The translations under genes were made by a program, and so were the position numbers. The notes below the pieces were generated by a model. That model worked only from the letters and a program-made list of their open reading frames with translations, had not been told where the DNA came from and searched no databases. This document shows positions 7,401-21,965 of a DNA stretch of 64,000 nt, one piece after another. Source of the stretch: Chthoniobacteraceae bacterium (GTDB taxonomy: Bacteria > Verrucomicrobiota > Verrucomicrobiia > Chthoniobacterales > Chthoniobacteraceae); NCBI GenBank assembly GCA_031409335.1, contig JANNWY010000195.1, positions 47,767-111,766 on the forward strand. Reading direction: 5' to 3'. Positions within the stretch are counted from its first letter, which is position 1; every line of letters begins with the position of its first letter.

Positions 7401-8506
7401 TAGGCGTCAAGCAGCGCGAAATCGCCCGCGTCCACGAGCACCGCCTCGGTTTGGACCGTGCCGCCTTTGACCGTGACCATCCCCAGAACCGCCCCCACGC
7501 TGGGCCCTGCGATCGTGGCGAGAGTGCCCAGGGTCAGCGCGCCGCGCCCGAGTTTTTGAAAGCTGCCGTTGATCGGGATGTTGACCGTCGCGCTGTTTGC
7601 GCCCGTATCGATCGTCGGGACCGAGGAGGCCGGACGGCTCAGCGTCAACACCGTTCCCGCTCCGATCTCCAGCGCGTAGCCCGAAGAGTCGAACTGCAAT
7701 CCGCCGGCCGAAATGTCCGCGCCAAGCGTCACGATTCCCCCGTTTCCACCGAAGACGGCGATGTCATGCACGTTCACGGTATTGCTCCAGGCAACATCCG
7801 TGCCCACGATTCCCCCCGGCAAATTGTCGAACCGCGCCAAGGTCGTATTCCAAGTCCCCGTGCCTCCGAGCGTCCCATTGTTAAACGCGCCATCGCCATC
7901 CCAAATCATCGGCGAAACGCCGGGTGTGGCGCTGCGGCTCGTCGCGGCGATCTCCGCGGCGGAGAAGCGCGTGCGTGCATTGGGGAACACCGAGTCCCTG
8001 CTCACCAGATAATCGTTGCCGGTGGCGTAGGCGGTGAACTTGATCTCACTGAGATTCTTATCGCTCCCTGCCAGGATCTGATTGCCTGGAGCGGAGCCCG
8101 TTCCCTCGAAAATCACCTCGAAAATATCCACGTCGCCCGGAGTGAATGTCCCGGCGCTCCCGCTGATTTGAAAGGTGTTGCCAACGAGTTCGATTACATA
8201 TCCGGCCGAAAGGAACGGCTCGCGGATGTTAGACATGATGTTCGATAGATTGATCTCGGCGTCATCGACCTGAAAGTGGAGTTGAAACGCTTCCACCTCG
8301 GGTGGATCGACCCGCATCACCCACGTAGCGGTACCCGTGGAGTACGAAAGCGACATCGTCGTCTTCGTGCCGCCGGTCGCGGTCGCGGCGTGGCCGCAAT
8401 CTGGAGCGAGCACGATCAGCCCCATGCAGACAAGCAGCGGGGGGAGGATGGGACGCGCAAGGATCGGCTGGCGAACCAGCCCGGGGGAGGGAGGATTTTT
8501 ACACAT
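1499..8506 (-). CDS. Large PEP-CTERM surface protein with many autotransporter-associated beta-strand repeats
   Basis: ORF 1499..8554 (2351 aa). Recurrent LTKxGxGTLxLxGxNT(Y/F)TGxT repeats and C-terminal VPEPGSLSLLLLGALSLLRRGK. Start is uncertain (8554, 8506 or 8425); 8506 chosen because of the upstream -35 position. Confidence 0.9.
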   Translation of the reverse strand: MCKNPPSPGLVRQPILARPILPPLLVCMGLIVLAPDCGHAATATGGTKTTMSLSYSTGTATWVMRVDPPEVEAFQLHFQVDDAEINLSNIMSNIREPFLSAGYVIELVGNTFQISGSAGTFTPGDVDIFEVIFEGTGSAPGNQILAGSDKNLSEIKFTAYATGNDYLVSRDSVFPNARTRFSAAEIAATSRSATPGVSPMIWDGDGAFNNGTLGGTGTWNTTLARFDNLPGGIVGTDVAWSNTVNVHDIAVFGGNGGIVTLGADISAGGLQFDSSGYALEIGAGTVLTLSRPASSVPTIDTGANSATVNIPINGSFQKLGRGALTLGTLATIAGPSVGAVLGMVTVKGGTVQTEAVLVDAGDFALLDAYLNAPPSTNVTLAGNGAFEYRAENQTPFDAVLRLPYGALAFTAGDGNVRSTLTTSPGMGTTESGLSFTSLSASAGATGNFVPGLNGAEIFVPGTVNRILSPRLFADGANFAARDAGGFVRALSYGTDANTVATNSLTPGNHVNLNFAFVPVFNSTSWRTLRLGGNTTFGLTAGATLTLTEGGLLKAGGASTIFGGAGSGITTGGSTELIVRTDLPTDDLTISSSILSSSTGGLTKSGQGTLTLSGTNAYTGPTIVNDGKLLVTGSVSSPIALLPEATLGGTGSVSVISGGGTVSPGGNTALPGLGTGILTAVSLNATQETDFRFDVGHTGALYDPSNDLLRLTDPTTPFAVPLCATSRIAFDFQLGSLSNGLTFLGGFFTAVDSTPFLQGAAVVATLNGARVPDGFGVTLNKMVPTSINFGAGLVGGFAAEFRVISPKVLNVNNGPWATGGNWFTPGIPAITDNAVIAATGTIDINGASLGGSTEVQDISFTGTANTTLTNASGTTNMILSLNGGRGTGIPLIKTNANVVSTIAGTGAGGRTLALSLKTSGEIRVEGSSQLNISTIVQESGGAFGLTKTGTGILTMSGANTFTGAMTLNSGTVAVPTVANNGTASPLGDGSSLVFNGGTLEFTGASGTTNRVVTLTGDGTVAIPSISNTLTLTGAISGSGSLIKTGAGTLVLTGVNSYTGPTLILTRSLMASSPGGSALPGNVTLGSSLGDNAFLRMGAANQFGPTSVLTFNHGNAAAKFELLGSNQTVAGLSSDADDVASIIQNEENGNPTLATLTINNTGDHIFNGIIRSFSGGGGAALNLVKNGSGTQEIRNTFADTLNFGTATINAGKLTFNLSGVTGSLGAGTTIFVNAGGQLGLDGTWTMNRPITGAGSVMKLGTGTVTIAGTADNTYTGATTVNAGTLVLNKPQGGGANNFGGAISGALTVSSSATVRLSASSQINDAAVVTLNGGTLDLNGQSETVGGLAVNGGNVIGSASGFLGLFGHVTADASTNSTIAARVNLAVSSPGAARNFTVATGGTLTVSGTVEDGFTGNAANLVKAGAGTLTLAGMNTFTGGVNIMVGTLAAAGGGDQTGRLGQGAVTVNASTTLRSDIGDSFGFFGGAPSVINVLGGTVTTGGAGNFRTTVPSLNLTGGTVTSAGGNTGDGSSGVYSINSGSTVTTNASVTTSTINAPSFGLQSPIVFTVADGSAATDLLVSSALTNVTYGGAAGGVTKAGTGTMTLSGANTYTGATTVNAGTLVLSGSLPNNSAINVNGGTFLVNGSVGAGSLTTVIVGGTVAGTGTINGTLSAAASSIVRVGDIGAGTLTVGTLSFGGAAASPSNVALASTGSVLSRLNVTTMGGLAANGGANSVRLNLSGSTLALGLQVLIDYTGAIGGGGFGGFLLGTLPPRTAAALVNNAGNTSIDLNVTAVDSPVWSGALGSAWSTAVLGPPKNWVLASNNGITTDFLTSDSVLFSDFATTTAVAINGADVTPALIRFNNTTKNYTVTGSNGIAGFLPFTKDGTGTVTLSTTNSFTGPMTLNFGTLSIPTIADGGSPSALGAGSNITFNGGTLQFTGASGSTNRALTLTGAGTISTTTALTLGGQIAGIGGLTKAGTGTLTLTGVNTFTGTTTLSQGNLVLGSAGGTALPGNVTLGTGVQAGIFLIMGAPNQFGPTSVVTFNNGPSRDNKFELRGFNQTVAGIQSDADDTLSIIQNQESGAPPTATLTINNTSNFIFNGLIRTRVGGPLNLVKTGLGTQEIRNVAAAPHAFGTATISAGKLTFNLSGATGTLAATTSVSIAAGATLGLDGTWNMNRDISGAGTVVKQGAGAVTISGAQSYATLQTLAGTTTLTSSLPGATINNTGGILNLNANATNSTVNVSAVTNFGASQTLTALNIGVGAVATLVAAGPSPADDGGGDMNNAGVLDLPEDFLSGEGVLLPAGPAVPEPGSLSLLLLGALSLLRRGKREPLT

Positions 8507-8557
8507 AGCTTTATCGACCGCCTCGCCTTTCGTCACGAAAGACGAATTACACATGGG

Positions 8558-8586
8558 ATTGCGACCACTTCGCTACGAATTGTCAA
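8558..8586 (-). promoter_or_regulatory. Possible sigma70-type promoter (TTGACA-N17-CGCAAT)
   Basis: Perfect TTGACA on minus at 8586..8581 with a weak -10. The paralogous gene also has a perfect TTGACA (11377..11372) 75 nt before its likely start. Confidence 0.35.
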
Positions 8587-8785
8587 TCACGGAATTCGCA
8601 TATTTTCAGCAGCTCACTCACAAACAACGGACGTGTTTGCGAAGATGCCGCGCGCTGGTCTCCCGAAACGAATTGTGGCGGCTGGATTTGCCGGATTTCG
8701 GACGCGCCGCCTCCGCTCGGGCGGGTGTTTTCCAATCGATCAACTCAATCGCCCCCTTCGGCAAGCTCAGGGCCTTCGGCAAATC

Positions 8786-11302
8786 TCAAAATCTCTGCCT
8801 CACCCGCCGCAGCAATCCGAGCGTTCCCAACAGCAGCAGACTCAGCGTGCCCGGCTCCGGAACGATGCGGATTTGCAGCGCGCGACCGGCGACCGGGCCT
8901 GCGCCAAAGTCGGCGATCTGGGGGATCATTTGGTCGAACACGATGCCGAAGTCGCCAGGCATCGGGGTGCCGTTGAATGTGGAAACATAGGCGGCGTCGC
9001 GGACGTAATCCGAAAAATCGGTGAGTGAATCGGTGAAGAAGCCCACGATGAAGAGGTCGCCGAGCGTAAGGAACGGCACGCCGAGATCGAAGAGCAGCCG
9101 GTTCGTGGCGCACAGGCCCGTGGTGAATGGAGTGGCGCCCGTGAGGTGCAACACATCGTTCCCGCTGGCGGAAGCGAAGAGGTAGTCCGGCCCGAACTGG
9201 CTGACCTCGAAGTGGAAACCCATGTCGAGCGAGGGATCGACGGAGGTCGCGGTGAGAATGCCCGCGCTCGCGCCGGGCGAGACGGTGCCCGCGCCGGAGA
9301 GCGCGCCCACCGTTCCAGTCCCACCGAGCGTCGCGCTGCCACTGAGGTTGACCGCGGAGGAGGTCGCGATCGAGCCGTTGACGATCAACGTGCCTTCCAG
9401 CACGTCGGTGGGGCCGGTGAAGGTATTGGTGCCCGTGAGAGTCAGCGTGCCCGCACCGGATTTCAGCAGGCCAGCGGTGTTGAAGATCGGACTCGCGATG
9501 GTGAGCGCATCGGCGACGGTGTCGGTGCGGACGACGAGCGTGGGACCGGCGGTGGTGAGTCCGCCAGTCAAGTTGCCGGGAGCGTGACTAATCATTCCCG
9601 GTGCGCCGCCGCCGGATTTGATCAAGCCGCCTTCCGAGAGCGTGAGCGTTTGGTCCGCGCCAAATGTGCCTCCCGCGGCGTTGCCGCCGAGATTCAAGGT
9701 GCGGAACGAAAAGCCGGGGAGTGTGCCGGGCGCGGGGCCGGTGATTTTCACATGCGTGTTGGGAGCGGCCGTGTCGATCGGGGAAGTGTTCGCGTCACTG
9801 CCATAATTAAGCGCCCTCACAAATCTCTCGAAGGCACCGGCACCGGGATTGACTGCGGCGTAATCGGCGCCGTTAAAAAAGAGCGTCGGGCTCAAAAGCT
9901 GGGCGGTTGGAGGACTGACGACGAAAAAGATGCCCGTACTAAGTGCGTTGGCGACCACGAAATTTCCCGTCGCAACACCGCTCGGAACGACCAGTGAATT
10001 AAAGACGAGGAAGGTGGCTCCGAAGCCGCCGGAGACGATTTCCACCGTGCCGTCACCCGAGCCAAAGGTCAGCGCGCCAACGTTCTCAGCACGTAAATCG
10101 GTGCTTCCGTTGAGATACCGCAGCGTGCCCTTTCCCGTAAAGAGGATCGCGGAGTTATCGCTCAACTGATTTTGCCCGCCCGGAAAGACATTGGTCGCGT
10201 CGAGTGCCACGGTGCCGCCTTTAATCGTGGTCGCGCCCGTGTAGGTGTTTGCGCCACCGAGGGTGAGCGTGCCTTTGCCGATTTTTTGGAGTCCGCTGGA
10301 ACCCACGATCGGCGAGTTGATCGTCGCATCGTTTCCGCCGGTATCGATCGTCCCCGCCGCACCGCCGGGCTTGCTAAGATTGAGGCTGCCGCCTTGGAAA
10401 GTGTAACCCGGCATGTCAAAGCGCAGTCCTCCCGCCGAGATCGGCTCCGCGAGCGTGACGATCCCCGTGCCCGGATTGCCGCCGAAGATCGCCTCGTCGT
10501 TGACGTTGATTGAGTTGCCCCAGAAGACGTTCGGAAACTCCTGCACCGGCCCCAAAACGTTAGTGTTCAGGTTGTCCCAACTGACGCCCGTCGTATTCCA
10601 AGTCCCCGGCCCGCCCATCGTCCCGTTGTCGTTCACGGCATCGGGATCCCAGACCATGGGATTCACCCCCGGCGTGACAGTGCGGCTGGTTGTGCCGATC
10701 TCCGCCGCAGTGATTCTCCTCGACACGGATCCCGGCACGTTTGGATCCCGCGCCATGATGAAATCGTTGCCTTTGGCAAACATGGTGAACTTGATCTGGT
10801 CGAGCGGCTTGTTGTTTCCCGTCCCGACCGCTCCCAAGCCGCCACCCGCCGGAGCGGGTGCCGGAGAAGGCGGAATAGGCGGAGTCGCGGTAAATCGCCC
10901 CTCAAAAATGTCCACATCGCCAGGGGTGAGCGAGAGCGCCGTCCCGGACACTTGATACCCGTTGGCTCCGTCCGGCACCACGGAAATCATCATGAACGGA
11001 TTCCGCCCATCGACACCCATCTCCGGCGAGAAAGTGAGGTCCGGCACGGCTTCGCCCGGATCGAACTGGATGTGGAGTTGGAAAGATTCCACATCCTCGG
11101 GATCGCAGCGCATGACCCACTTGGAGCCCGTTGCGTAATACTTGAGCGACATCGTGGTCGTCGTGCCGCCGGTCGCGGTCGCGGCCTGACTGGCTTCAGG
11201 GAGGACAGCAAGCCACCCGAGACCAGCCAGCATCGGCAGGATTAGTGTGCGTACGAGGATTGACCGGGAAACCGGCCAGTGGGGGGAGTGGCTAGAGTTC
11301 AT
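8786..11302 (-). CDS. PEP-CTERM surface protein with autotransporter-associated beta-strand repeats, paralogue of the N-terminal third of 1499..8506
   Basis: ORF 8786..11377, likely ATG 11302 (MNSSHSPH, then a signal peptide ending EASQA). C-terminal VPEPGTLSLLLLGTLGLLRRVRQRF. Confidence 0.9.
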   Translation of the reverse strand: MNSSHSPHWPVSRSILVRTLILPMLAGLGWLAVLPEASQAATATGGTTTTMSLKYYATGSKWVMRCDPEDVESFQLHIQFDPGEAVPDLTFSPEMGVDGRNPFMMISVVPDGANGYQVSGTALSLTPGDVDIFEGRFTATPPIPPSPAPAPAGGGLGAVGTGNNKPLDQIKFTMFAKGNDFIMARDPNVPGSVSRRITAAEIGTTSRTVTPGVNPMVWDPDAVNDNGTMGGPGTWNTTGVSWDNLNTNVLGPVQEFPNVFWGNSINVNDEAIFGGNPGTGIVTLAEPISAGGLRFDMPGYTFQGGSLNLSKPGGAAGTIDTGGNDATINSPIVGSSGLQKIGKGTLTLGGANTYTGATTIKGGTVALDATNVFPGGQNQLSDNSAILFTGKGTLRYLNGSTDLRAENVGALTFGSGDGTVEIVSGGFGATFLVFNSLVVPSGVATGNFVVANALSTGIFFVVSPPTAQLLSPTLFFNGADYAAVNPGAGAFERFVRALNYGSDANTSPIDTAAPNTHVKITGPAPGTLPGFSFRTLNLGGNAAGGTFGADQTLTLSEGGLIKSGGGAPGMISHAPGNLTGGLTTAGPTLVVRTDTVADALTIASPIFNTAGLLKSGAGTLTLTGTNTFTGPTDVLEGTLIVNGSIATSSAVNLSGSATLGGTGTVGALSGAGTVSPGASAGILTATSVDPSLDMGFHFEVSQFGPDYLFASASGNDVLHLTGATPFTTGLCATNRLLFDLGVPFLTLGDLFIVGFFTDSLTDFSDYVRDAAYVSTFNGTPMPGDFGIVFDQMIPQIADFGAGPVAGRALQIRIVPEPGTLSLLLLGTLGLLRRVRQRF

Positions 11303-11638
11303 AAATGACCTCGTCGGCCCCGTTAATGGACAGCCGAAGGGATGGATAGATGGCGCGCATGGCCGACTACTTGTCAAGGGTTCATTTCGCCCGAATGGCT
11401 CAGTGCTCAGCCATCTTCCGAGCCTTTAATACGTTACGCGTTTCCGGCACGCTGGCAGCCCGTGCTACGGCGCGATTGCCGACGTTTGATCCAAAACTCC
11501 GCGATGGGGTTGACCGCGGATTCCGATCCCGATCTCAGGTTCAAAAAGTAAAAGCTCGCAGCCGCCGAGAGTCCGCAAAACTTCGGCATCGGCAGCAGAT
11601 CGCGGCGATCCTGCCGAAACTTGGAAAGGCGTGCGCGG

Positions 11639-12706
11639 CTAGTAAACCCCTTCGACGATCTTGTTCTCCATCGCGCCGAACGGACGCACTTCGGCGACGC
11701 CGTCCCACGCATACGGTGCGCGGGGTTTGCGGCGGAGGGCTTCGTCCCGCTCGAGGAAGCGGGGCATGAAAAACTCTTTCGTGAGCGTGGTCAGCTCGAC
11801 CCGGCCCCAGGTGTCGTATGGGACCGTATTCGTCGTATCTTTCGGATCGACCACGCGCAGCACGGCGCGCGGTTGCGGGGCGTAGTAGGTGATCGAGAAA
11901 TTGTCCTCCGGCAAAAGCGGGACGCTGGCGGCTAGGCCCATGAGCGTGTTGCCGTAGGTCGGGTAGAAACCGATGCGGCCTTCCAGCACTTCCTCGACGA
12001 TGAAACGCACGTATTGCGGGAGCATCGTGGTGCCGCCGCAGAAGACGCCGCGAATGCCAGCCTCGTAGATGTCCACCTTCTCTGCGAGTGCTTCGAGCAG
12101 CTTTGGCGTGGTGAAGAGGCCGCTGACTTTGCGGTGCTTCAGGATCACCGCGGCCTGATCGGCGACGTGTTCCATGTATTGTTTCGCCACGTCGAATTGC
12201 TTCGCGGAAATCAGCTTTTTCACGAAGCGTGGGTCGAGGTCGATGAAGTAACACGACGATCCGCGGACGTGCGCGAGGTGCTCGATCGCGAGCCGCAGAC
12301 GGCGCGGCCCGGTCGGTCCCATCATCAGCCAGGCACCGCCGCGCGGGAAATGTTCGTCGGAAATTTTTTCGCTGAACTCGCTGTAATCCACTTTGTAGTC
12401 GGTCCAGCCGATGCGCTGTTTCGGCATCCCGGTCGTGCCCCCGGTCTCGAAAATGTTAAACGGTTTGCCTTTGAACTCCGCGGGCACCCACACTTCCGGC
12501 TGCAAGTCGCGCAGCCATTCATCCTCGAAATGCGGGAATTTTTTCACGTCGTCGATCGTCTTGATCTCCGCGTGCGGATCGAAGTTTTTCTTTGCCCAAT
12601 CGAGCCAGAACGGGCAGCCGGTTTCCGGCGAGAAATGCCACGCGATGATCTCGCGCAGGTGGGTGTCGAGTTGAGCTTGGGCCTGTTCGGAAGTGAGTTG
12701 GGTCAT
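11639..12706 (-). CDS. EhpF-like atypical ANL-superfamily adenylating enzyme (large domain only)
   Basis: WHFSPETGCPFWL, FDP..EIKTIDD, P-loop-like FETGGTTGMPK, YGNT and LERD motifs resemble the phenazine-modifying EhpF family. Likely ATG 12706; the ORF track start 12730 is TTG. Confidence 0.75.
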   Translation of the reverse strand: MTQLTSEQAQAQLDTHLREIIAWHFSPETGCPFWLDWAKKNFDPHAEIKTIDDVKKFPHFEDEWLRDLQPEVWVPAEFKGKPFNIFETGGTTGMPKQRIGWTDYKVDYSEFSEKISDEHFPRGGAWLMMGPTGPRRLRLAIEHLAHVRGSSCYFIDLDPRFVKKLISAKQFDVAKQYMEHVADQAAVILKHRKVSGLFTTPKLLEALAEKVDIYEAGIRGVFCGGTTMLPQYVRFIVEEVLEGRIGFYPTYGNTLMGLAASVPLLPEDNFSITYYAPQPRAVLRVVDPKDTTNTVPYDTWGRVELTTLTKEFFMPRFLERDEALRRKPRAPYAWDGVAEVRPFGAMENKIVEGVY

Positions 12707-12805
12707 GTGCGGGAAAAATACGTAAGCCAACGCATATCGGGACGCGGCCCCGGCGCAAATGGCAAACTCTCGGCTTTTGCCGCCAAAGCGACGACCATCT
12801 GCGCC

Positions 12806-12837
12806 AGTGAATAGCCTGTGAATAACTCTGTGGAATG
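12806..12837. promoter_or_regulatory. Cluster of DnaA-box-like 9-mers
   Basis: TGTGAATAA at 12817-12825 is the reverse complement of TTATTCACA (fits TTWTNCACA). Degenerate co-oriented AGTGAATAG (12806) and TGTGGAATG (12829) flank it. Confidence 0.3.
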
Positions 12838-12923
12838 GCTTGAACTTTCAGCAGGGCGACGGATTGAATATGGCTTCCCTCATTTTTGCGGTGAATGAGG
12901 CCGTACTAAACCGAACTGTGACT

Positions 12924-15900
12924 ATGCTTAAACAGGCTGAAATTATCGTCAGGGAGGGCTCGAAAGCTCTCGCTGAATATCTCTTTGACCCCGGCAACTA
13001 CGTCATCGGTCGCGATCCCTCTTGCGACATTTTGGTGAACAGTCTCGGCATTTCGCGCAAACACGCGCAACTTACGGTCACCGCTGACCGCCTCATCGTT
13101 CGGGATCTCGGCAGCACCAATGGCACCTATCTCGGCGAAGATCTCGTCGTCGGCGAGCAACCCGTGCTCCCGGGAAGTGCGATCCGCATCGGCACGCTGG
13201 GCAGCGTGGAAGTGCGGCTCGTGGATGCAAAAGTGCAGCCGCAAAATGGCAACGGGAACGGCAACGGGAACGGCCACGCGCAGGGCAATGGGAATGGCAA
13301 CGGCAACGGCAGCGATCACGGGCAGTCGCGGATCGGGCAGTTGGAAAAGGCGATGGCTGAAGCGCAAAGCGAACGCGTCTCCGCGATCGGGCAAGTGGCG
13401 GAACTGCGCGCGCAATTGGACGCGGCCACACAGGAATTGGCCGCCGCGCGTTCCGAGACGCAGATGGGCTTTGAGAGTTCGGGGAAACTCGCGCGCGAAA
13501 TGGAAGCGCAGACGGAAGAACTGGCCGCGCTGAAAACGACACACCGCGCGTTCACCGAAAAATATGAGATGGCGCTCGCCGAAAGCGATCACCTACGCGC
13601 CACTCACGAGAATCAGCGTCGAGAATGGGAAGAGCAGCGCGGCGTGCTCACGTCCCGCGTCCAGACTCTCGAGGCGGGTCAACGAGAGAGCGCCGTCGCG
13701 GCGCAGGCGCAACTCGGCGCGCTCCGGCAGGAATCCGCCGACGTCCTGAAAGCGCGCGACGCGGCGCTGGCCGACGCGAGCCAGGAGCGCGAGGCGCATC
13801 GGACTTACCGGCAGCAAATGGCTGCGGAAATGGCGGAACTCCGCGAAAAAAATCAACGCCAGCTCGAAGTGCTCAATGCCGACTGGGAGCAAGTCATCAC
13901 CGAGCGCGACGACGCGCTGCACCGCCTCGCGGAAAGCGGTGGCGAACTGCAAACTCGCATCGCCGCACTGCTCCGGGAGCGCGACGAAGCCAGGAAACTC
14001 GCGCAGGATCGGGAACAGAATCTCGCGGTTTCCACCAAAGCGATCGAGGCGCTGAAACGCGAAGGGTCCGCGCTCACCCAGCAACGCGACGAGGCAGAGA
14101 AGGCGAAGGCGGCGCTCGGTGCCGAAGCCCAAGCAGCTCGACAGCAGCTTGCGGAAAGCGAGACGAACCATTCGCGGAAGATCGCGTCGCTGCAATGGGA
14201 GCGCGACGAACTCGAGAAGATGGCCCGCGCCGTCCAGGAGGAATTTGACCAGCATCGCGCCGCGATCACCCGCGAAAAATCCACGCTGAACGTCGAGGTG
14301 GCCACGCTCACCGATTCGCACAAGGCGCAGCTCGACCAGATTTCCGCAGAACTCCAAGCTGCGGCGAAGGAGCGGGACGAAACCGCGCGCCAGTTTGCGG
14401 AATTCAAATCCGCCAGCCAAAAGCGGATGGCTGCAGTCACGAGTGAACGCGATGAGCTGACGAAAGCCGCGGGCGAACAACACGCCGAACTCCAGCGCCT
14501 CCGCGAAGAAGCCGCCCAAACCAAAACCGCGCTCTCCGGCGAAATGGCGGCGCTGGCCCAAACGCGCGACACGCAAATCGAGCAACTCACCAGCGAACGC
14601 GCCGAGGCCTTGCGCAAGTTTGCGGAACTCAAAACGAGCAGCGAGCAGCAGTGCAATCTGCTGCGCACACAGCGCGATGAGTTTGAAAAAATCGCCAAAG
14701 CCGCCAAAGCCGAACGCGACCAGGCGGTGCAGGCGAAGGCCGAACTTTCCGGCGAAGTGACGACGCTCGCCGAAACGCGCACCGCGCAGCTCGCTCAACT
14801 CAAGAGCAGCAGCGAACAGCAACTCGCCGCGCTGCGGAAGGAGCGCGACGGATTTGAAAAAGCCGCCAAAGCGGCGCAGGCGGAACTCGTCCGCGACCGC
14901 GACGAAGCAGCGGGGATCAAGGCCGCACTTTCCGGCGAGATGGCAAATCGCTCGGCGCAAATCGAAAAAGTAGTCGGCGAGCGTGCCGCGGCTTTGCGCG
15001 AGATCGAGGAACTCAAGACCAGCAGCGGGCAGCAACTCGCCGCGCTGCGAGAAGAGCGCGATGAATTTCAAAAGAACGCCAAAGCGGCGCAGGCAGAACT
15101 CGTCCGCGACCGCGATGAAGCAGCGGGGATCAAGGCCGCACTTTCCGGCGAGATGGCAAATCGCTCGGCGCAAATCGAAAAAGTAGTCGGCGAGCGTGCC
15201 GCAGCTTTGCGCGAGATCGAGGAACTCAAGGCGAGCCGCGAGCAACAACTCGCCGCCTTGCGCAACGAGCGCGATGAATTTGAAAAAGCCGCCCAAGCCC
15301 TGCGCTCGGAACTCGATCGCGAGCGTGGCGAGGCCGCGCAGACCAAAGCCGCGCTTTCCGGCGAGATGGCGACACTCAGCGAAACGCGCACGACGGAGCT
15401 CGAACGGCTCACCCAAGAACGTCAGGCCGCGCTCGAAGCGCGCGCGGAAACTCTGCTGCGGATCGAAGGGCTCAAGGCAGACAGCGAGCGACAATTCGCC
15501 GCGCTGCGCACGGAGCGCAGTGAGTTTGAAAAGATCGCGAAGGCTGCGCAGGCGGAACTCAGCCGCGAACGCGAACAAGCAGCGCTGGCGCAGGCCACGC
15601 TTTCCGGCGAGATGACGACGCTCGTCGAAACGCGCACGGCGCAATTCGACGAATTGAAAAAGAGCAGCGGGCAGCACATCGCTGCACTGCAAAAGGAGCG
15701 CGATGAATTTCAAAAAACCGCCAAAGCCGCGCGGGCAGAACTCGATCGCGAACGCAGTCTGGCCGCTCAGGCGAAGGCTGCGCTTTCCGGCGAGATGGCG
15801 ACACTCAGCGAAACGCGCACGATGGAGATCGAACGGCTCACCCAAGAACGTCAGGCCGCGCTCGAAGCGCGCGCGGAAACTCTGCTGCGGATCGAAGGGC

Positions 15901-18900
15901 TCAAGGCGGACAGCGAGCGACAATTCGCCGCGCTGCGCACGGAGCGCAATGAGTTTGAAAAGAACGCGAATGCCGCGCAGGCGGAACTCAGCCGCGAACG
16001 CGAACAAGCTGCACAGGCGAAGGCGGCGCTCTCGGGCGAAGTGGCGACGCTGATCGAAACGCACACCGCGCAGATCCAGCAGCTCACCAACGAGCGGGCC
16101 GAAACGCTGCGCCGAATCGAGGAACTGAAGACGAACAGCGAGCGGGAACTCGCTGCGTTGCGCGCGGAGCGGGATGAACTCGGCGCGCGTGAACGCGATG
16201 CTCAGGGCAAAATCGCCGCGATGGCGCGTGCGGTCGAGAGTGGCGAACGCGAGATCGCGGCGCTCACCCGGCAGCGTGGGGAGATCGAGAGCGACCGGGC
16301 CGCGACATCCGATCAACTCGCGAAGCTCGCCGATGCGCACAAGGCGCAATTGGAGTCGATCGCCGCCGAGCGCGTGGCGCTCATTGCCGAACGCGACAAG
16401 GCCGTCGCGCGCATCGCCACGATCTCCGAAGTCCACCAGCGCAATCTCGATGAACATCACAAGGGACGCCTCGCGCTGACCGCCGAGCGCGACCGGGCTT
16501 TTGCGCAATTCGGGGACCTGCGCACGGCGCTGGAGAACGAAATCTCGAGCATCAAGGAAGATCGCTCCGCGGCCATCCGCGAACTCGAGCAGGGCCTCGC
16601 GCGGCTCACGGATCTCAATGCCGCGCAGAATATCCAGATCGAAGCGCTGACCATCGAACGCGACAACGCGCTCTCCACGGGCACGCTCGAAGTCGCCGCC
16701 GTGGCGCGGGCGAACGAAGCGCGCAAAAAGGAAATTGCCGCGCTCGAAGCGCAGCGCGACGCCCTTGCGAAGGAAAAAGAGGAGGCGGTGCGGCAGTTCA
16801 CGCGGCAGATCGCCGGACTCGAAGCGCGGGCGAAAGGCGCGGCGAATGAAGCCGCGAAACAACTCGCAGCGAAAGAAACGGAACTCGCGGAATGGCGCGA
16901 ATCCGTCACCTCGCTCGGCGCGCAAATCGCGGCGGTGAGCCATCAGCGGGACGAAGCGAATACGGCTTTGAGCAAAGCCACGGACGATCGGGCGAAGCAG
17001 GCGGAAGCGTTCGACGCCGAGCGCCAGACTGCGCGCCGCGAGTCGGACGAGACGGCGGCGCGATTCGCGGCGGGCCGCGAGGATTTGCAAAAACAAATCG
17101 CCGCGCTGAACGAGCAGAGCGCCGTGATCGCGCGGGAACGTGACGAAGCGCGGAACCGGATCGCCGAACTCGCGAATACGCACGCGACCCGGATCGCCAC
17201 CTTTGAAGCGGAACGCGCCGCCGTGCGACAGGAGCGAGATCAAGCTGCCGCGCAGGCTGCGGAACTCGCCGCGGAGCAGCGTCGGCAAATCGAGGCGCTG
17301 ACCGATCAACGCGAGCGGCTCATTGGCGAACGCGACCGGGCGCTCGCGCATTTTTCCGAAATCTCCGACAGCCATCGGCAGCAACTCGTGGCGGGTGAAA
17401 CCGAACGGCTCAGCCTCATCGGGTCGCGCGACCAGACCGTTTCGCAGATCGAACAAATCCGCGCGAATCACGAAGGGCAGATCGCAGCGCTCGACGAGAC
17501 GCATCGCGCGGCGATTCGTGAACACGACGCGGCGCTGGGGCGGATGTCGGAATTAAGCGAAGCGCAGCAGCGGCAAATCGAATCGCTGATCGGCGAGCGG
17601 AATCTCCTCGTCAGCAGGCTGGAAGAAGCGGAGCGCCGCTCGGCGACCGAGGCGCAATCGCTGCGGCAAAATCTGAAAGCGATCGATGTCGAGCGTGGTC
17701 GCGTGGTCGGCGAGCGCACGGCGACGGCGAAGGAACTTGGCCGGGTCATCGACGAGCAAAAAGCGCGCATCGAGCAGCTCACGCAGCAGGGCGCTTTTCT
17801 CACCAAAGAGCGCGACGAAGCGCTGGCCCGCATCGAAACGCTGACCGCCGACCGGCGGCGCGAAGCCGAGGAAAGTGCCGCGCAACACGCCGACGCCCTG
17901 CGCGACCGCGACGAGACGCTCGCGCGATTCACGGCGCTCTGCGAAGAGCACGCGAGCACCGCGGCCAATCTCGGCCAGCAGCGCGAGGCAGTCGTCGCCG
18001 AGCGGGATCACGCGCTGGCGCAATCGCTCCAGCAGCGCGAGGAGCATTTCCGCGAAATCGAAACGCTACGGGGCGAGCATCGTGGCGCGCTGGAAAAACG
18101 CGACGCGGCGGTCAGCCGGTTGCAGGGAATCATCGACGCGCAAAAGCGGCAGATGGACGGGCTCGCGGCCGATGGCGCGAGCATTCGCACCGATCGCGAT
18201 GCGCAAATGACGAGCGTGCGCGCCGAGCTTTCCGCCGCGATCAAGGATCGCGACCAGACCATCGCCGAAATGCTCCGCGCGAATGAATCGCAGAGCGAAC
18301 GCATCGCGCTGCTGAACACGCAGATCGACGGCTTGAATCGCGGCAAGGAAGAGTCCGCCGCCGGCCTGCAACAACTCCGGCAAACGCACAAGGAGCAGAC
18401 GGAATTTTTCGAGAACGAACGCGCCGGCCTGCTCAAGGCGCGCGGCGAAGCGATCGAGCGGCTCACTGCCGTCGTCACCGCGCAGCAGGAGCAAATCGCC
18501 GCCGCGCAGCAGCAGCGGGAGATGCTGCTGGGCGAGCGGGATGAAATGCGCGGGCAGTTCGCGGAAGTCAGCGCCGCGCACACGCGGCAGATCGAAACGC
18601 TGCTCGCGGAGAAGGATCAGCCGCAGGCGCTTTTCGCGCAGCTCAGCGGCTCGCACCGCGAGCATGTCGAGACGCTTTCGCTGAACGTGGACGCGCTGCG
18701 CAAGGAGCGGGATCAGGCGTTTGCGCAGTTTGAAAAAATCAACGAGGCGCAGAAAACGCAGATCGAAACGCTCGTGCGGCAGCGGGATTACACGCTCGCG
18801 GAAGGCGAGGAGGCGCGGGCGCAACTCACCGGCGTCAACACCGCGCAAGCGAAGCAGATCAAATCGCTGGAGCGCGAACGCGCCGCAGTGATCCGGGAGA

Positions 18901-21680
18901 AAGATCAGGCGCTGGCGCGGCTGGCGGAGGTGAACAAGGCGCAGACCGCGCAGATCGCTTCGCTCACGCGGCAACACGCTGATTTTGTCAAAGAGAAGGA
19001 CGCCGCCCTGAAACGCGCGGCGCAGACGGCGGACGCGCAAAAGCGGCAGATCGAGTCGCTCGAAACCGCGCACGCTGTCGCCGCGCGAGAAAGCGAACAA
19101 GCCCTCGCGCGACTGACCACGCTCGGTGAATCGCACACACTCCAAATCACCTCCGCCGAGACAGAACGCGCGTCGGCGATTCAGGCCCGCGACGAAGCCG
19201 CCGCCGAACTGGCGCGCGTGAACGAAGCGCAGCTCCGGCAGTTGGAGTCGCTGAAAAAACAAAGCGAACAAATCGCGAAGGAACGCGATGGCCTCGCCGC
19301 AAAACTCGCGAAGGATCAAAAAACAAAGCAGGCGGCAGTCGCAAAATTTGCCGTGGAGAAGACCGCTCTTTTCGCCGATCGCGATGCGGCGATTGCAAAG
19401 TTCAAGGAGGCGAACGCAGCGCAGAAAAAGCTGAACGAATCGCTCACGATCGAGCGCGAAAACGTGCGCCAGGAGCGCGACCAACTTCGCGCGGAACTCG
19501 CGCAAGCGGTCGATGCCCACAAGACGCAGCTCGACGCGCTGGCGGAACAGCGGAACGCCGCGCTGAAAGATCACGAGGCGGTCCTCGCGCGCTTTACCGA
19601 GATGAATGCGGCGCAGGCGAAGCAGATCGAATCGCTCCAGCTTCACCGCGCCTCCGTTTCCAAAGAGCAGGCGGCTGACGCGCCACGGCTGCAGGAAATC
19701 GCCAAAGCGCAGCAGACCCAGATCGAATCACTGGGCAAGGAGCGCGATGCGGTCGTGCGGGAGAAAGAAGCGTCCATCGCGGAGATCAGTCGCGTGAATG
19801 CGGCGCAGCAACAGCAGCTCGGCGCCCTCGTCGAAGACCGCGCCAGCCTCATCACCGCACGCGATGCGGCGCAGGCGAAGTGGAAGGAAATGCAGACCGC
19901 GCAGGTGGCGCAGATCGCTTCGCTCACGGGCCAGCTCACCGAGTCGAATGCGGAGCGCACGAAGGCGCTCGACCAACTCGCGCAGGTGAACGCCGTGCAG
20001 CAAAAGCGCATCGAAACGCTGAGCACCGAACGCGAGGCGGCGAGGGCGGAGATCGCGCGCCTTCAGGAAACCCATCGCGGCGAAATCGAAAGCATCCATG
20101 CCCGGCACTCCGGCGCGGCCAAGGCACTGATCGAACTTCAAGCCGACCGGGAAAAGGCGCTGCGCGACCGGGACGAAGCCAACGCCCTGAGTGTCCGCGC
20201 GAAAGAGAATCACCTCAAGCAACTCAACGCGCTCACCAGCGAACGCGACACGCTGCTGCACGAGCGCGACCGCGCCCTCGTCCGCCTCGAGAGCCTGGCG
20301 GAAACGCACAAGGGCGACGTGGGAGCGGTTGCGCTGCGCACCGATTCGCTGCGCTCCGAAATCGCGGCGCTCACGGAAAAACACCGGCACACGGTCGCCG
20401 AACGGGACGAGCTGCAGGAGCGGATCGAACGACTGAAAGACGCCAACTTAAAACAAGTGGCAGAACTCGGGCAGGAACGCCTCACCATCGTGGAAGAGCG
20501 CGACCGGGCGCTGATCCATCTCGAAAATTCCGAGCAAAAAGTTGCCGATGTTTCAGCCACGCTGGAGAAGGAGCGTGACTACTTTAACAAGGAGCGGGAA
20601 AAAGCGTTCACCCTGCTCGACGAGGCCAGGAATGCGCGGCATCGCGTGGAGCAAATCCTCGATGAGAAATCCGCTTTTGCCCAGGAACTCACCCACGCTC
20701 AGGAAGCGCTGCACAGCCTCGCGGCGGCAACACCGGAGAAATCCGAAACCACGGTGAAGCTCGAAAAACTGCTCGCGGGTTTGAAAGCAAAACTCGCCGG
20801 CGCACGCCAGACCACCAGTGAAACCGCGAACCTCGCGGCCTTCCAACTGTCCCCCGCCGAGAAACTGCTCTCGCGGCACAAATACAAAATCGAGCGCGGC
20901 CAGTCGGACGAACAGACGCCCGGCGTCTGCCGTGCGCGCGACGTGAATATCGACCGCACCGTCGCGATGAAACTCGCCGGTGAAAAACCCGAAACACGCG
21001 ACCAGTCCATCGCGGAACTCATCGCCGAAGCGCGGATCATCGGGCAGTTGGAACACCCGAACATCCAATCCATCCATGAACTGAGCGTGAATGAAAACGG
21101 GAACGCCTTTTACACCGCCCGGCCAATGAAGGGCACGAGTCTCGCGAAGATTCTCGACGATCTCGCCGCGAAGAAAAACAGCGCGATCGTGCGCTACAAT
21201 CTCAAGCGCCTGCTCGCCATCTTCGACCGGGTCTGCGACGCGCTGGCGTTCGCCCATTCCGAAGGCATCGCCCACGGCCTGCTCAGCGCGCAGACCATCG
21301 TGGTCGGCGACTTCGGCGAAGTTCTCGTGACCGGCTGGGAACGGGCCAAAAAAATCCGCCAGGAAAACGTCGGCACGTATGAAGCCGACATCCGCGCCGA
21401 CATCGCCGCGCTCGCCGATTTACTCCTCCACATGCTCACGCTCACCCCGCCGGTGCCCGGCGAGAAGAAGCCAAAAGTGAAGCTCGCCGCGAGTTGGAAA
21501 GTTCCGAAAGGTCTCTTGAAACTGACGCTGCGCATCCTGCGCGACCGCGGTGCGACGGCGTATCCGAGAGTCACGCAATTGCAGACGGACGTGGAAGATT
21601 TCCGCGACGACCTCGGGCCGCGCGGCGGCCGGGCGTCCGCGTTCGATCGGGTCAAACAATCGCTGCAACGCTGGCAGTAA
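12924..21680 (+). CDS. Giant FHA domain / coiled-coil / Ser-Thr pseudokinase protein (~2,900 aa)
   Basis: ORF 12840..21680, start ATG 12870 or 12924. FHA motifs IGRDPSCD, ISRKHA and DLGSTNGT; about 2,500 aa of A/E/Q/R-rich helical repeats; C-terminal kinase fold with VAMK, EARIIGQLEHPNI and VCDALAFAHSEG but degenerate catalytic motifs. Confidence 0.9.
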   Translation: MLKQAEIIVREGSKALAEYLFDPGNYVIGRDPSCDILVNSLGISRKHAQLTVTADRLIVRDLGSTNGTYLGEDLVVGEQPVLPGSAIRIGTLGSVEVRLVDAKVQPQNGNGNGNGNGHAQGNGNGNGNGSDHGQSRIGQLEKAMAEAQSERVSAIGQVAELRAQLDAATQELAAARSETQMGFESSGKLAREMEAQTEELAALKTTHRAFTEKYEMALAESDHLRATHENQRREWEEQRGVLTSRVQTLEAGQRESAVAAQAQLGALRQESADVLKARDAALADASQEREAHRTYRQQMAAEMAELREKNQRQLEVLNADWEQVITERDDALHRLAESGGELQTRIAALLRERDEARKLAQDREQNLAVSTKAIEALKREGSALTQQRDEAEKAKAALGAEAQAARQQLAESETNHSRKIASLQWERDELEKMARAVQEEFDQHRAAITREKSTLNVEVATLTDSHKAQLDQISAELQAAAKERDETARQFAEFKSASQKRMAAVTSERDELTKAAGEQHAELQRLREEAAQTKTALSGEMAALAQTRDTQIEQLTSERAEALRKFAELKTSSEQQCNLLRTQRDEFEKIAKAAKAERDQAVQAKAELSGEVTTLAETRTAQLAQLKSSSEQQLAALRKERDGFEKAAKAAQAELVRDRDEAAGIKAALSGEMANRSAQIEKVVGERAAALREIEELKTSSGQQLAALREERDEFQKNAKAAQAELVRDRDEAAGIKAALSGEMANRSAQIEKVVGERAAALREIEELKASREQQLAALRNERDEFEKAAQALRSELDRERGEAAQTKAALSGEMATLSETRTTELERLTQERQAALEARAETLLRIEGLKADSERQFAALRTERSEFEKIAKAAQAELSREREQAALAQATLSGEMTTLVETRTAQFDELKKSSGQHIAALQKERDEFQKTAKAARAELDRERSLAAQAKAALSGEMATLSETRTMEIERLTQERQAALEARAETLLRIEGLKADSERQFAALRTERNEFEKNANAAQAELSREREQAAQAKAALSGEVATLIETHTAQIQQLTNERAETLRRIEELKTNSERELAALRAERDELGARERDAQGKIAAMARAVESGEREIAALTRQRGEIESDRAATSDQLAKLADAHKAQLESIAAERVALIAERDKAVARIATISEVHQRNLDEHHKGRLALTAERDRAFAQFGDLRTALENEISSIKEDRSAAIRELEQGLARLTDLNAAQNIQIEALTIERDNALSTGTLEVAAVARANEARKKEIAALEAQRDALAKEKEEAVRQFTRQIAGLEARAKGAANEAAKQLAAKETELAEWRESVTSLGAQIAAVSHQRDEANTALSKATDDRAKQAEAFDAERQTARRESDETAARFAAGREDLQKQIAALNEQSAVIARERDEARNRIAELANTHATRIATFEAERAAVRQERDQAAAQAAELAAEQRRQIEALTDQRERLIGERDRALAHFSEISDSHRQQLVAGETERLSLIGSRDQTVSQIEQIRANHEGQIAALDETHRAAIREHDAALGRMSELSEAQQRQIESLIGERNLLVSRLEEAERRSATEAQSLRQNLKAIDVERGRVVGERTATAKELGRVIDEQKARIEQLTQQGAFLTKERDEALARIETLTADRRREAEESAAQHADALRDRDETLARFTALCEEHASTAANLGQQREAVVAERDHALAQSLQQREEHFREIETLRGEHRGALEKRDAAVSRLQGIIDAQKRQMDGLAADGASIRTDRDAQMTSVRAELSAAIKDRDQTIAEMLRANESQSERIALLNTQIDGLNRGKEESAAGLQQLRQTHKEQTEFFENERAGLLKARGEAIERLTAVVTAQQEQIAAAQQQREMLLGERDEMRGQFAEVSAAHTRQIETLLAEKDQPQALFAQLSGSHREHVETLSLNVDALRKERDQAFAQFEKINEAQKTQIETLVRQRDYTLAEGEEARAQLTGVNTAQAKQIKSLERERAAVIREKDQALARLAEVNKAQTAQIASLTRQHADFVKEKDAALKRAAQTADAQKRQIESLETAHAVAARESEQALARLTTLGESHTLQITSAETERASAIQARDEAAAELARVNEAQLRQLESLKKQSEQIAKERDGLAAKLAKDQKTKQAAVAKFAVEKTALFADRDAAIAKFKEANAAQKKLNESLTIERENVRQERDQLRAELAQAVDAHKTQLDALAEQRNAALKDHEAVLARFTEMNAAQAKQIESLQLHRASVSKEQAADAPRLQEIAKAQQTQIESLGKERDAVVREKEASIAEISRVNAAQQQQLGALVEDRASLITARDAAQAKWKEMQTAQVAQIASLTGQLTESNAERTKALDQLAQVNAVQQKRIETLSTEREAARAEIARLQETHRGEIESIHARHSGAAKALIELQADREKALRDRDEANALSVRAKENHLKQLNALTSERDTLLHERDRALVRLESLAETHKGDVGAVALRTDSLRSEIAALTEKHRHTVAERDELQERIERLKDANLKQVAELGQERLTIVEERDRALIHLENSEQKVADVSATLEKERDYFNKEREKAFTLLDEARNARHRVEQILDEKSAFAQELTHAQEALHSLAAATPEKSETTVKLEKLLAGLKAKLAGARQTTSETANLAAFQLSPAEKLLSRHKYKIERGQSDEQTPGVCRARDVNIDRTVAMKLAGEKPETRDQSIAELIAEARIIGQLEHPNIQSIHELSVNENGNAFYTARPMKGTSLAKILDDLAAKKNSAIVRYNLKRLLAIFDRVCDALAFAHSEGIAHGLLSAQTIVVGDFGEVLVTGWERAKKIRQENVGTYEADIRADIAALADLLLHMLTLTPPVPGEKKPKVKLAASWKVPKGLLKLTLRILRDRGATAYPRVTQLQTDVEDFRDDLGPRGGRASAFDRVKQSLQRWQ
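14865..15290 (+). repeat. Intragenic near-identical tandem duplication, 213-nt (71-aa) period
   Basis: AKAAQAELVRDRDEAAGIKAALSGEMANRSAQIEKVVGERAAALREIEELK begins at 14865 and again at 15078. Confidence 0.9.
15351..16060 (+). repeat. Intragenic duplication, 429-nt (143-aa) period
   Basis: gcgctttccggcgagatggcgacactcagcgaaacgcgcacg occurs at 15351 and 15780, each followed by near-identical ERLTQERQAALEARAETLLRIEGLKADSERQFAALRTER. Confidence 0.9.
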
Positions 21681-21748: not shown

Positions 21749-21965
21749 CGATTTCCACAGACTCTCTGCGTGGAGGGAGAACGTCCAAGCATGAAAGCCG
21801 AAGGCCTTGGACTGCGGTGATTCCTTCACCGCTCTCGCAGAGCACGGCGCGTCATCGTCCGGTGACGCTTTTTCCCAAAGCGGTGAAGGAATCACCGCAG
21901 TCCAAGAGCCTTCGGCTTTCATGCTTGGGCGCTCCACTTTCAAACAGAAGAGTCCGTGGAAATCG
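21749..21965. repeat. Long imperfect palindrome (REP/MITE-like, family A copy 1) between convergent genes
   Basis: Arms about 21749-21833 and 21879-21965 are reverse complements with a few mismatches. Each holds the inner hairpin GCGGTGA-TTCCT-TCACCGC. Confidence 0.85.

Follow-up and report, generated by a model that had tools for sequence, protein, structure and literature searches.

A giant FHA, coiled-coil and pseudokinase protein of the Chthoniobacteraceae as a candidate membrane-docked phosphothreonine tether

Here, we propose that a 2,918-residue protein encoded by a Chthoniobacteraceae bacterium is a membrane-docked, phosphothreonine-triggered long-range tether or scaffold, cytoplasmic and spanning 260-410 nm in most members of its family, a reading that we would put at a probability of roughly 0.45. 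This is based on the giant having an N-terminal FHA domain with intact binding residues, a helical rod built of a 32-residue repeat, and a C-terminal dead kinase whose close kin carry a membrane anchor at that end. The gene lies in a window of 64,000 nucleotides (contig JANNWY010000195.1, positions 47,767 to 111,766), which is the whole stretch of DNA that was analysed. We found no description of the family in the open-access literature, in agreement with the initial annotation, which knew of no described protein with this architecture; we would place it among the coiled-coil scaffolds, with a predicted role. The features of the gene are as follows.

12924..21680, + strand: whole gene, 2,918 aa, comprising FHA, 32-residue-repeat coiled coil, predicted pseudokinase and amphipathic tail (ORF list, Pfam, ortholog alignment)
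12924..13223, + strand: FHA domain, residues 1-100, with G29-R30, S44-x-x-H47 and N66-G67 (Pfam PF00498, E 1.4e-14; motif counts)
13248..13311, + strand: flexible Gly-Asn low-complexity linker, its length varying across orthologs (tandem repeat; alignment)
13329..20648, + strand: net acidic helical rod, with some 76 coiled-coil repeats of 32 residues each and a hydrophobic period of 3.555 = 32/9 (Fourier and autocorrelation, 12/12 proteins)
14797..15370, + strand: recent 213-bp (71-residue) tandem duplications in the length-variable N-terminal half of the rod (tandem repeats; ortholog comparison)
20649..20852, + strand: hinge from rod to pseudokinase, containing a candidate Thr peptide that is not conserved (alignment; low model confidence)
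20853..21614, + strand: predicted pseudokinase, K2683 and E2702 retained; Gly loop, HRD Arg/Asp, DFG Asp (now T2803) and activation segment/APE lost (motifs, model, Foldseek)
21624..21677, + strand: conserved basic amphipathic C-terminal helix ending Trp-x, a candidate membrane or partner dock (hydrophobic moment, charge, 22/22)

The initial annotation had described an FHA domain with intact binding residues at one end, a dead kinase fold at the other, a helical middle of about 370 nm and no transmembrane segment, and had suggested a scaffold or tether with reader and pseudokinase held apart. The architecture supports each of these points; the 32-residue repeat, a membrane-anchored sister family and the C-terminal amphipathic helix are new here.

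The single open frame extends over 12840-21680 in the ORF list of the window. The N-termini of the orthologs, M-x(1-2)-[TK]-Q-A-E, match the ATG at 12924, so the start is placed there, the chain opening straight into an FHA strand, and these same N-termini rule out the starts further upstream at 12840 and 12870. An assembly chimera, a danger raised at the outset, is rejected because contigs of a possible source run tile the gene with 0 differing letters, three gaps in the repeat region excepted, and because the same architecture recurs in other genomes. One 213-bp unit is missing from one contig of a second run, so the copy number of this unit is variable or uncertain. Pfam places an FHA domain at the N-terminus, a weak kinase match at the C-terminus and no domain in the middle.

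At the N-terminus, the phosphothreonine-binding motifs Gly-Arg, Ser-x-x-His and Asn-Gly are all present in the sequence, and the closest relatives of solved structure are OdhI and GarA (E 6e-13). FHA domains are generally Thr-specific. Among 17 FHA copies, Ser, His and Asn-Gly are each kept in 17/17 and Arg30 in 15/17, one of the two copies that lack the Arg being in the single-contig genome G023. By contrast, 2 of the 4 FHA-kinase paralogs of the source genome lack the Arg.

At 0.1485 nm per residue, the rod of about 2,440 residues would measure about 362 nm; it contains 3 prolines and is rich in Ala, Glu, Arg, Leu and Gln. In 12 of 12 giants tested, the main hydrophobic period is 3.55-3.56 by Fourier analysis and the strongest regular self-similarity by autocorrelation falls at lags 32, 64, 96 and 128; identity at lag 32 is 0.186 in the giant vs 0.099 +/- 0.006 over 200 shuffles. 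A trained repeat profile, from which the register was read, gives nine core layers at intervals of 3-4-3-4-4-3-4-3-4, equivalent to three heptads and one hendecad, with Arg within E-R-D motifs at two layers and Gln or His at a third. The rule given in PMC9858780, applied to a period of 3.555, points to a loosened left-handed supercoil. Since dimers tolerate long polar core residues best, according to PMC13580157, the Arg, Gln or His at 3 of 9 layers suggest that the rod is probably a two-stranded parallel coiled-coil dimer. Searching the ESM Atlas with the rod returned generic coiled coils at low recognition. The family offers structural study a natural, strictly phased 32-residue coiled-coil repeat.

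At the other end, the giant matches the kinase fold (Pfam E 7e-8), and an AlphaFold2 model of this region (mean pLDDT 78) matches PknA, PknB and Src by Foldseek at E ~1e-11. Of the residues that define an active Hanks-type Ser/Thr kinase, the beta-3 Lys and alphaC Glu are retained in 22/22 giant sequences; the HRD Arg/Asp of the catalytic loop and the Mg-binding Asp at the DFG/DWG position are missing in 22/22, and the glycine loop is degenerate. Only ~20 residues separate the DWG-position Trp from the alphaF Asp vs ~60 in an active paralog, hence the activation segment and APE motif appear to be gone. By these motifs the kinase end is a pseudokinase, its fold kept and its catalytic residues lost. 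Its best-kept part is the N-lobe with the Lys-Glu pair and alphaC, and 54 of the last 275 residues are invariant in 22 sequences. The best NCBIfam match is PRK13184, the chlamydial PknD (E 4e-17, 61.5 bits vs a cut-off of 839), and an ESM Atlas search with the tail returned generic kinases. The helix that ends the chain has a hydrophobic moment of 0.42-0.61 over its last 13 residues and a net charge of +1 to +3 over its last 18 in 22/22 giants; it is low in confidence in both models (pLDDT ~50). The conserved Thr residues near the tail are all inside the kinase fold, with no conserved exposed Thr in the tail. A complex prediction of the FHA domain with the last 310 residues, modelled without phosphate, scored 0.00 (mark 0.32) and so carries no weight for or against their binding.

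A link between the kinase end and the membrane is suggested by sister proteins that also combine a rod with a pseudokinase. They appeared, alongside fragments of the giant, among the best 150 matches when 1.8 billion representatives were searched with a profile, and they share the giant's 32-residue period and shortened kinase. A C-terminal transmembrane helix is present in 7/7 sisters examined (hydropathy 2.23-3.36), and the C-terminal helix of the giant is the counterpart of the helix that precedes this anchor. The giant itself has no transmembrane segment (best 19-residue hydropathy 1.36 vs 2.23-3.36 in the seven anchored sisters), nor was a C-terminal anchor found in 13 giants (best 1.04-1.66). 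Five genomic copies of the sister gene show no FHA at their start, and Pfam found none in 7 stored sister proteins. Sister loci, with rod, pseudokinase and C-terminal membrane anchor, are L024:2489-7432, L004:148-2451 and L096-L098; of the 151 family genomes, 7 have sisters, accompanied by the giant in 3 cases, and the source genome yielded none.

In a quick, midpoint-rooted tree of 61 kinase cores, which included 12 of the 22 giants and left out sister P0088, a protein with no anchor motif, giants and sisters form one branch (SH-aLRT 98). The grouping with the anchored sisters suggests that, in close kin of the giant, the kinase end lies at the membrane. The adjoining branch (SH-aLRT 97) holds a dead kinase with a full C-lobe preceded by an apparent FHA end, and the 448-residue FHA-pseudokinase of L084 is similar to it; L084:9515-10861 and P0086 are short FHA-pseudokinases that keep the full C-lobe and are a candidate intermediate form. 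In addition, the source genome has four proteins in which a short linker (~40 residues) joins an FHA domain to a kinase with intact HRD; two of these continue into a membrane helix and repeat domains. On this evidence we assign the pseudokinase by descent to the local FHA-kinase family. The likely path starts from an active FHA-kinase that became an FHA-pseudokinase; a rod would then have been inserted and the activation segment lost, after which two forms would have parted, one anchored and lacking the FHA, the other bearing the FHA and lacking the anchor. This order is tentative, since the tree is midpoint-rooted and long dead branches may attract each other. The family thereby shows a plausible route from an active FHA-kinase to a structural protein.

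The source genome also has three paralogs in tandem (G000:C176:52076-58869). One is a soluble FHA-kinase and another an FHA-kinase that carries a membrane helix and repeat domains; the third, a dead kinase that has a membrane helix, also lacks the activation segment and groups in the tree with its active neighbour, so its loss looks independent. In the membrane proteins P0056, P0058, P0059 and P0063, an active kinase domain is followed in tandem by a dead one whose activation segment is shortened; these form a separate branch of the tree.

The giant was detected by kinase C-lobe search in 24 of 151 genomes of the family Chthoniobacteraceae, the source genome included (orthologs called at E 2e-50 or better; next match 1e-14). 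With the source genome excluded, carriers by genus number 1/4, 18/29, 2/2 and 2/4, and the remaining 25 genera have 0. Searches of 329 genomes from 15 other families of the same order, and of 400 further genomes sampled across the phylum, did not find it. A scan of a species collection gave 24 loci at 53-75% identity followed by a fall to 34%, all of them metagenome-assembled and labelled Chthoniobacter, Chthoniobacteraceae, Chthoniobacterales, Spartobacteria or Verrucomicrobiae. Protein collections seem to contain the family mostly as fragments (top matches 184-487 aa): a word-indexed search with the tail gave 49 matches among 3,234 candidates, the 6 examined including no ortholog, and one with the rod gave 0 of 7,999.

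Ortholog loci were examined at 22 of the 24 other places, six of them cut by contig ends. The FHA domain lies upstream in 16/16 other loci with both ends visible; 12 of these are intact (1,521-3,237 aa) and 4 interrupted, which with the source makes 13/17 intact and 4/17 interrupted (2 frameshifts, 2 in-frame stops). The two single in-frame stops fall at different rod sites (L041:8777-8779 and L045:5505-5507) and could reflect nonsense alleles, split proteins or errors in the consensus. Over 8 ortholog pairs, dN/dS is 0.08-0.21 in the FHA domain and 0.09-0.25 in the pseudokinase; the C-terminal rod gives 0.21-0.48 and the N-terminal rod, which aligns poorly, 0.21-0.60. Every part of the giant is under purifying selection. 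Of the 29 genomes of the best-sampled genus, 11 gave no match to the gene, some of these being >90% complete, and it is thus dispensable; together with the interrupted loci, this speaks against a vital role.

In light of these ends, what might the giant do? In the reading that we prefer, the pseudokinase would be a structural head capping the rod, and the C-terminal amphipathic helix would dock it at the inner membrane or a membrane complex, much as the sisters would dock through their transmembrane anchor. At the far end, the pair of FHA domains would capture a phosphothreonine of another protein, either a target of one of the many Ser/Thr kinases in the cell or such a kinase itself, and the rod would keep the captured partner at a distance of up to a few hundred nanometres from its anchor. 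The sisters' anchor at the same end and the amphipathic helix of the giant make docking by the kinase end the best reading, and a giant that ends at the pre-anchor helix, amphipathic and basic in 22/22, is suggestive of it. The selection on FHA domain, pseudokinase and C-terminal rod points the same way, as do the 6-58 kinase-domain matches per carrier genome (five genomes searched), the polar core layers suited to a dimer and the lack of a conserved exposed Thr in the tail. Against docking, the tail helix could merely pack on the kinase domain, its pLDDT being ~50. Against the tether more generally stand the two FHA copies without Arg, the interrupted loci and the lack of any conserved neighbourhood indicating a partner; in addition, a simple tether has no need of a strict axial repeat.

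That repeat is better explained by an intermediate-filament-like cytoskeletal protein, in which dimers would pack laterally, offset according to the 32-residue repeat, possibly together with other 32/9 rods of the cell, and in which the end domains would only place or regulate the polymer. We regard lateral assembly of this kind as possible, if on the doubtful side, and it does not exclude a tether. The repeat phase is held over >1,000 residues, the E-R-D motifs are conserved and the charge period is near 32/3; rod lengths differ in steps of a whole repeat or heptad, and a polymer can accommodate such steps. The membrane-anchored sisters are more tether-like. A second giant rod family also bears on the filament. 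Its gene in the source genome shows lag-32 similarity, and its 85-residue head, which has no Pfam match, occurs in 116/151 family genomes, often in frames of 1,200-3,000 aa. Of nine long members chosen, 6/9 have a period of 3.545-3.555, and 8/9 carry a short amphipathic basic N-terminal peptide, which resembles membrane-targeting sequences, as 8/9 do a conserved Pro-rich C-terminal peptide. Homology of this rod to that of the giant is unsupported, the repeat profiles correlating 0.38 in register vs 0.33 off register. As kinship of the repeat sequences is not demonstrable, co-assembly is only a lead. In the source genome, the gene of this second family is split at a repeat between contigs C116 (3669 to end, + strand) and C177 (start to 1808, + strand); further loci are L094, L095 and L105-L113.

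A broader version, which we consider improbable, holds that the Chthoniobacteraceae own a kinase-controlled fibrous cytoskeleton in which at least three kinds of 32/9 rod would co-assemble by their common axial period. These would be the widespread rod with the membrane-targeting-like N-terminus, the membrane-anchored rod with pseudokinase, and the FHA-pseudokinase giant, which would read threonine phosphorylation.

The initial annotation had raised, among other options, a head-to-tail arrangement, in which the FHA domain would bind a phosphothreonine beside the pseudokinase of the next molecule to form phospho-switched chains or rings. The intact FHA residues would allow it, FHA and kinase domain lie ~40 residues apart in the parent family, and FhaA binds the phosphorylated tail of the MviN pseudokinase, as related in the main text of PMC12599244. 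The tail peptide that had been singled out fares poorly, its three Thr being found in 2, 9 and 3 of the 22 ortholog sequences. Residue 2643, the closest hydroxyl site that is conserved, is Thr in 6/13 and Ser in 7/13. The activation loop, the usual phosphothreonine site, is deleted, and the sisters retain rod and pseudokinase without any FHA. Self-recognition is thus unlikely to be general, and we count this arrangement a long shot.

A still more distant prospect is that the giant is a non-catalytic regulator of active PknD-like paralogs, its pseudokinase pairing with an active kinase and its rod positioning the pair. The well-kept N-lobe with its Lys-Glu pair and alphaC would suit such pairing, and active paralogs are numerous in the source genome. 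Genome G023, however, has the giant and no close paralog: its next-best match is E 7.6e-9, unlike the 1e-25 to 1e-40 of paralog-bearing genomes.

A molecular ruler fixing a cellular distance, also raised initially, is very unlikely. The rod is continuous and proline-poor, and its C-terminal 1,200 residues stay in register across orthologs, as a ruler would have it; its length, however, ranges over 1,044-2,761 residues (155-410 nm) in 13 intact members, or 259-410 nm once the shortest, perhaps a collapsed assembly, is set aside. This range argues against a ruler, the variation lying mostly in the N-terminal half of the rod through recent duplications, and the giants of two near-identical genomes (dS ~0.05) differ by 96 residues. 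Hardly credible, finally, is a decaying, functionless kinase gene inflated by repeat slippage, for which the lost catalysis, the patchy distribution and the 4/17 interrupted loci might be cited, against dN/dS well below 1 in all parts, 13/17 loci intact across 1.5-3.2 thousand codons and the 54 invariant tail positions.

Among known proteins, the nearest in layout to the proposed tether is SLMAP, a subunit of the eukaryotic STRIPAK complex with an N-terminal FHA domain binding phosphorylated kinases and a long coiled coil (PMC6323126), and with a C-terminal membrane attachment. SLMAP has a true tail anchor and no pseudokinase, whereas here an anchor is found only in the FHA-less sisters. The similarity is one of layout, homology being unsupported. 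SLMAP is also far shorter than the giant. Scy and FilP of Streptomyces are, like the giant, very long, Ala-rich, dimeric bacterial coiled coils with a non-heptad repeat; Scy consists almost wholly of hendecads (period 3.67), bears a DivIVA-like motif at its N-terminus and has a rod of >1,000 residues (PMC9858780). The giant differs in its period of 3.555, its ~2,400-residue rod and the signalling domains at both ends. Members of the DivIVA-like superfamily (Scy/FilP) have an N-terminal GYD-x-x-EVD motif and a hendecad rod; the giant begins with FHA, has no Pfam DivIVA match and lacks the 3.67 period. Nor does the giant fit the SMC proteins, which have a split ABC ATPase head and a central hinge: Pfam places no ATPase or hinge domain in it, and its SMC matches are compositional and far below cut-off.

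Turning to the pseudokinases, the analogy with MviN (ActPs3) and FhaA drawn initially stands in functional terms, a dead kinase serving as scaffold alongside an FHA reader; it does not extend to descent. As described in the main text of PMC12599244, MviN and FhaA are separate actinobacterial proteins in a membrane flippase context, and ActPs3 has all three motifs degraded, including the beta-3 Lys (VALT); the giant keeps Lys and Glu, carries its FHA in the same chain, has its activation segment deleted and belongs to a different kinase group. By comparison of motifs, the retained Lys places it outside ActPs3. None of ActPs1, ActPs2, GLW, CP1, DYD and DLHK, as the descriptions in that review give their motif, partner domain and taxon, appears to fit the giant; GLW is loosely similar in that the giant's catalytic loop starts His-Gly, and differs in being without the Lys. 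The main text of this 2025 review contains no occurrence of Verrucomicrob-, Planctomycet- or coiled, and names no pseudokinase in the phylum or on a coiled coil, among the few bacterial ones with a known job. The PknD-like DWG-motif kinases, including the FHA-kinase(-TM-TPR/LRR) paralogs, have the sequence of FHA and kinase in common with the giant and differ in their ~40-residue linker and intact HRD, DWG and activation segments. Myxococcus AglZ and FrzS likewise fuse a degenerate signalling domain to a long coiled coil and act as localised scaffolds; unlike the giant, they have receiver-like heads, shorter rods and no FHA or kinase fold. The family connects Ser/Thr phospho-signalling with a rod whose length is a considerable part of a cell's width, in a bacterial group with a barely studied cell biology.

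The gene stands isolated, the flanking genes on either side both being on the minus strand. A promoter/terminator scan of 12600-13000 gave 0 sites, and no neighbour is conserved at the 22 ortholog loci, the commonest other family occurring at 4 loci only. The divergent neighbour (11639-12730, - strand) encodes an AMP-binding ligase of 363 aa that resembles coenzyme F390 synthetase; its matches lie below family cut-offs, and it is not conserved beside the giant in orthologs. Beyond it (1499-11377, - strand) lie two large proteins of 2,351 and 863 aa with passenger-associated (PATR) repeats by Pfam, the 863-aa one carrying a PEP-CTERM tail. Immediately after the stop codon is a near-perfect long inverted repeat (21776-21940; fold z -14.9) that gives 77 BLAST pieces over 31 contigs, 52 of them >=100 bp; it is a REP- or MITE-like element that could serve as a terminator for the converging genes.
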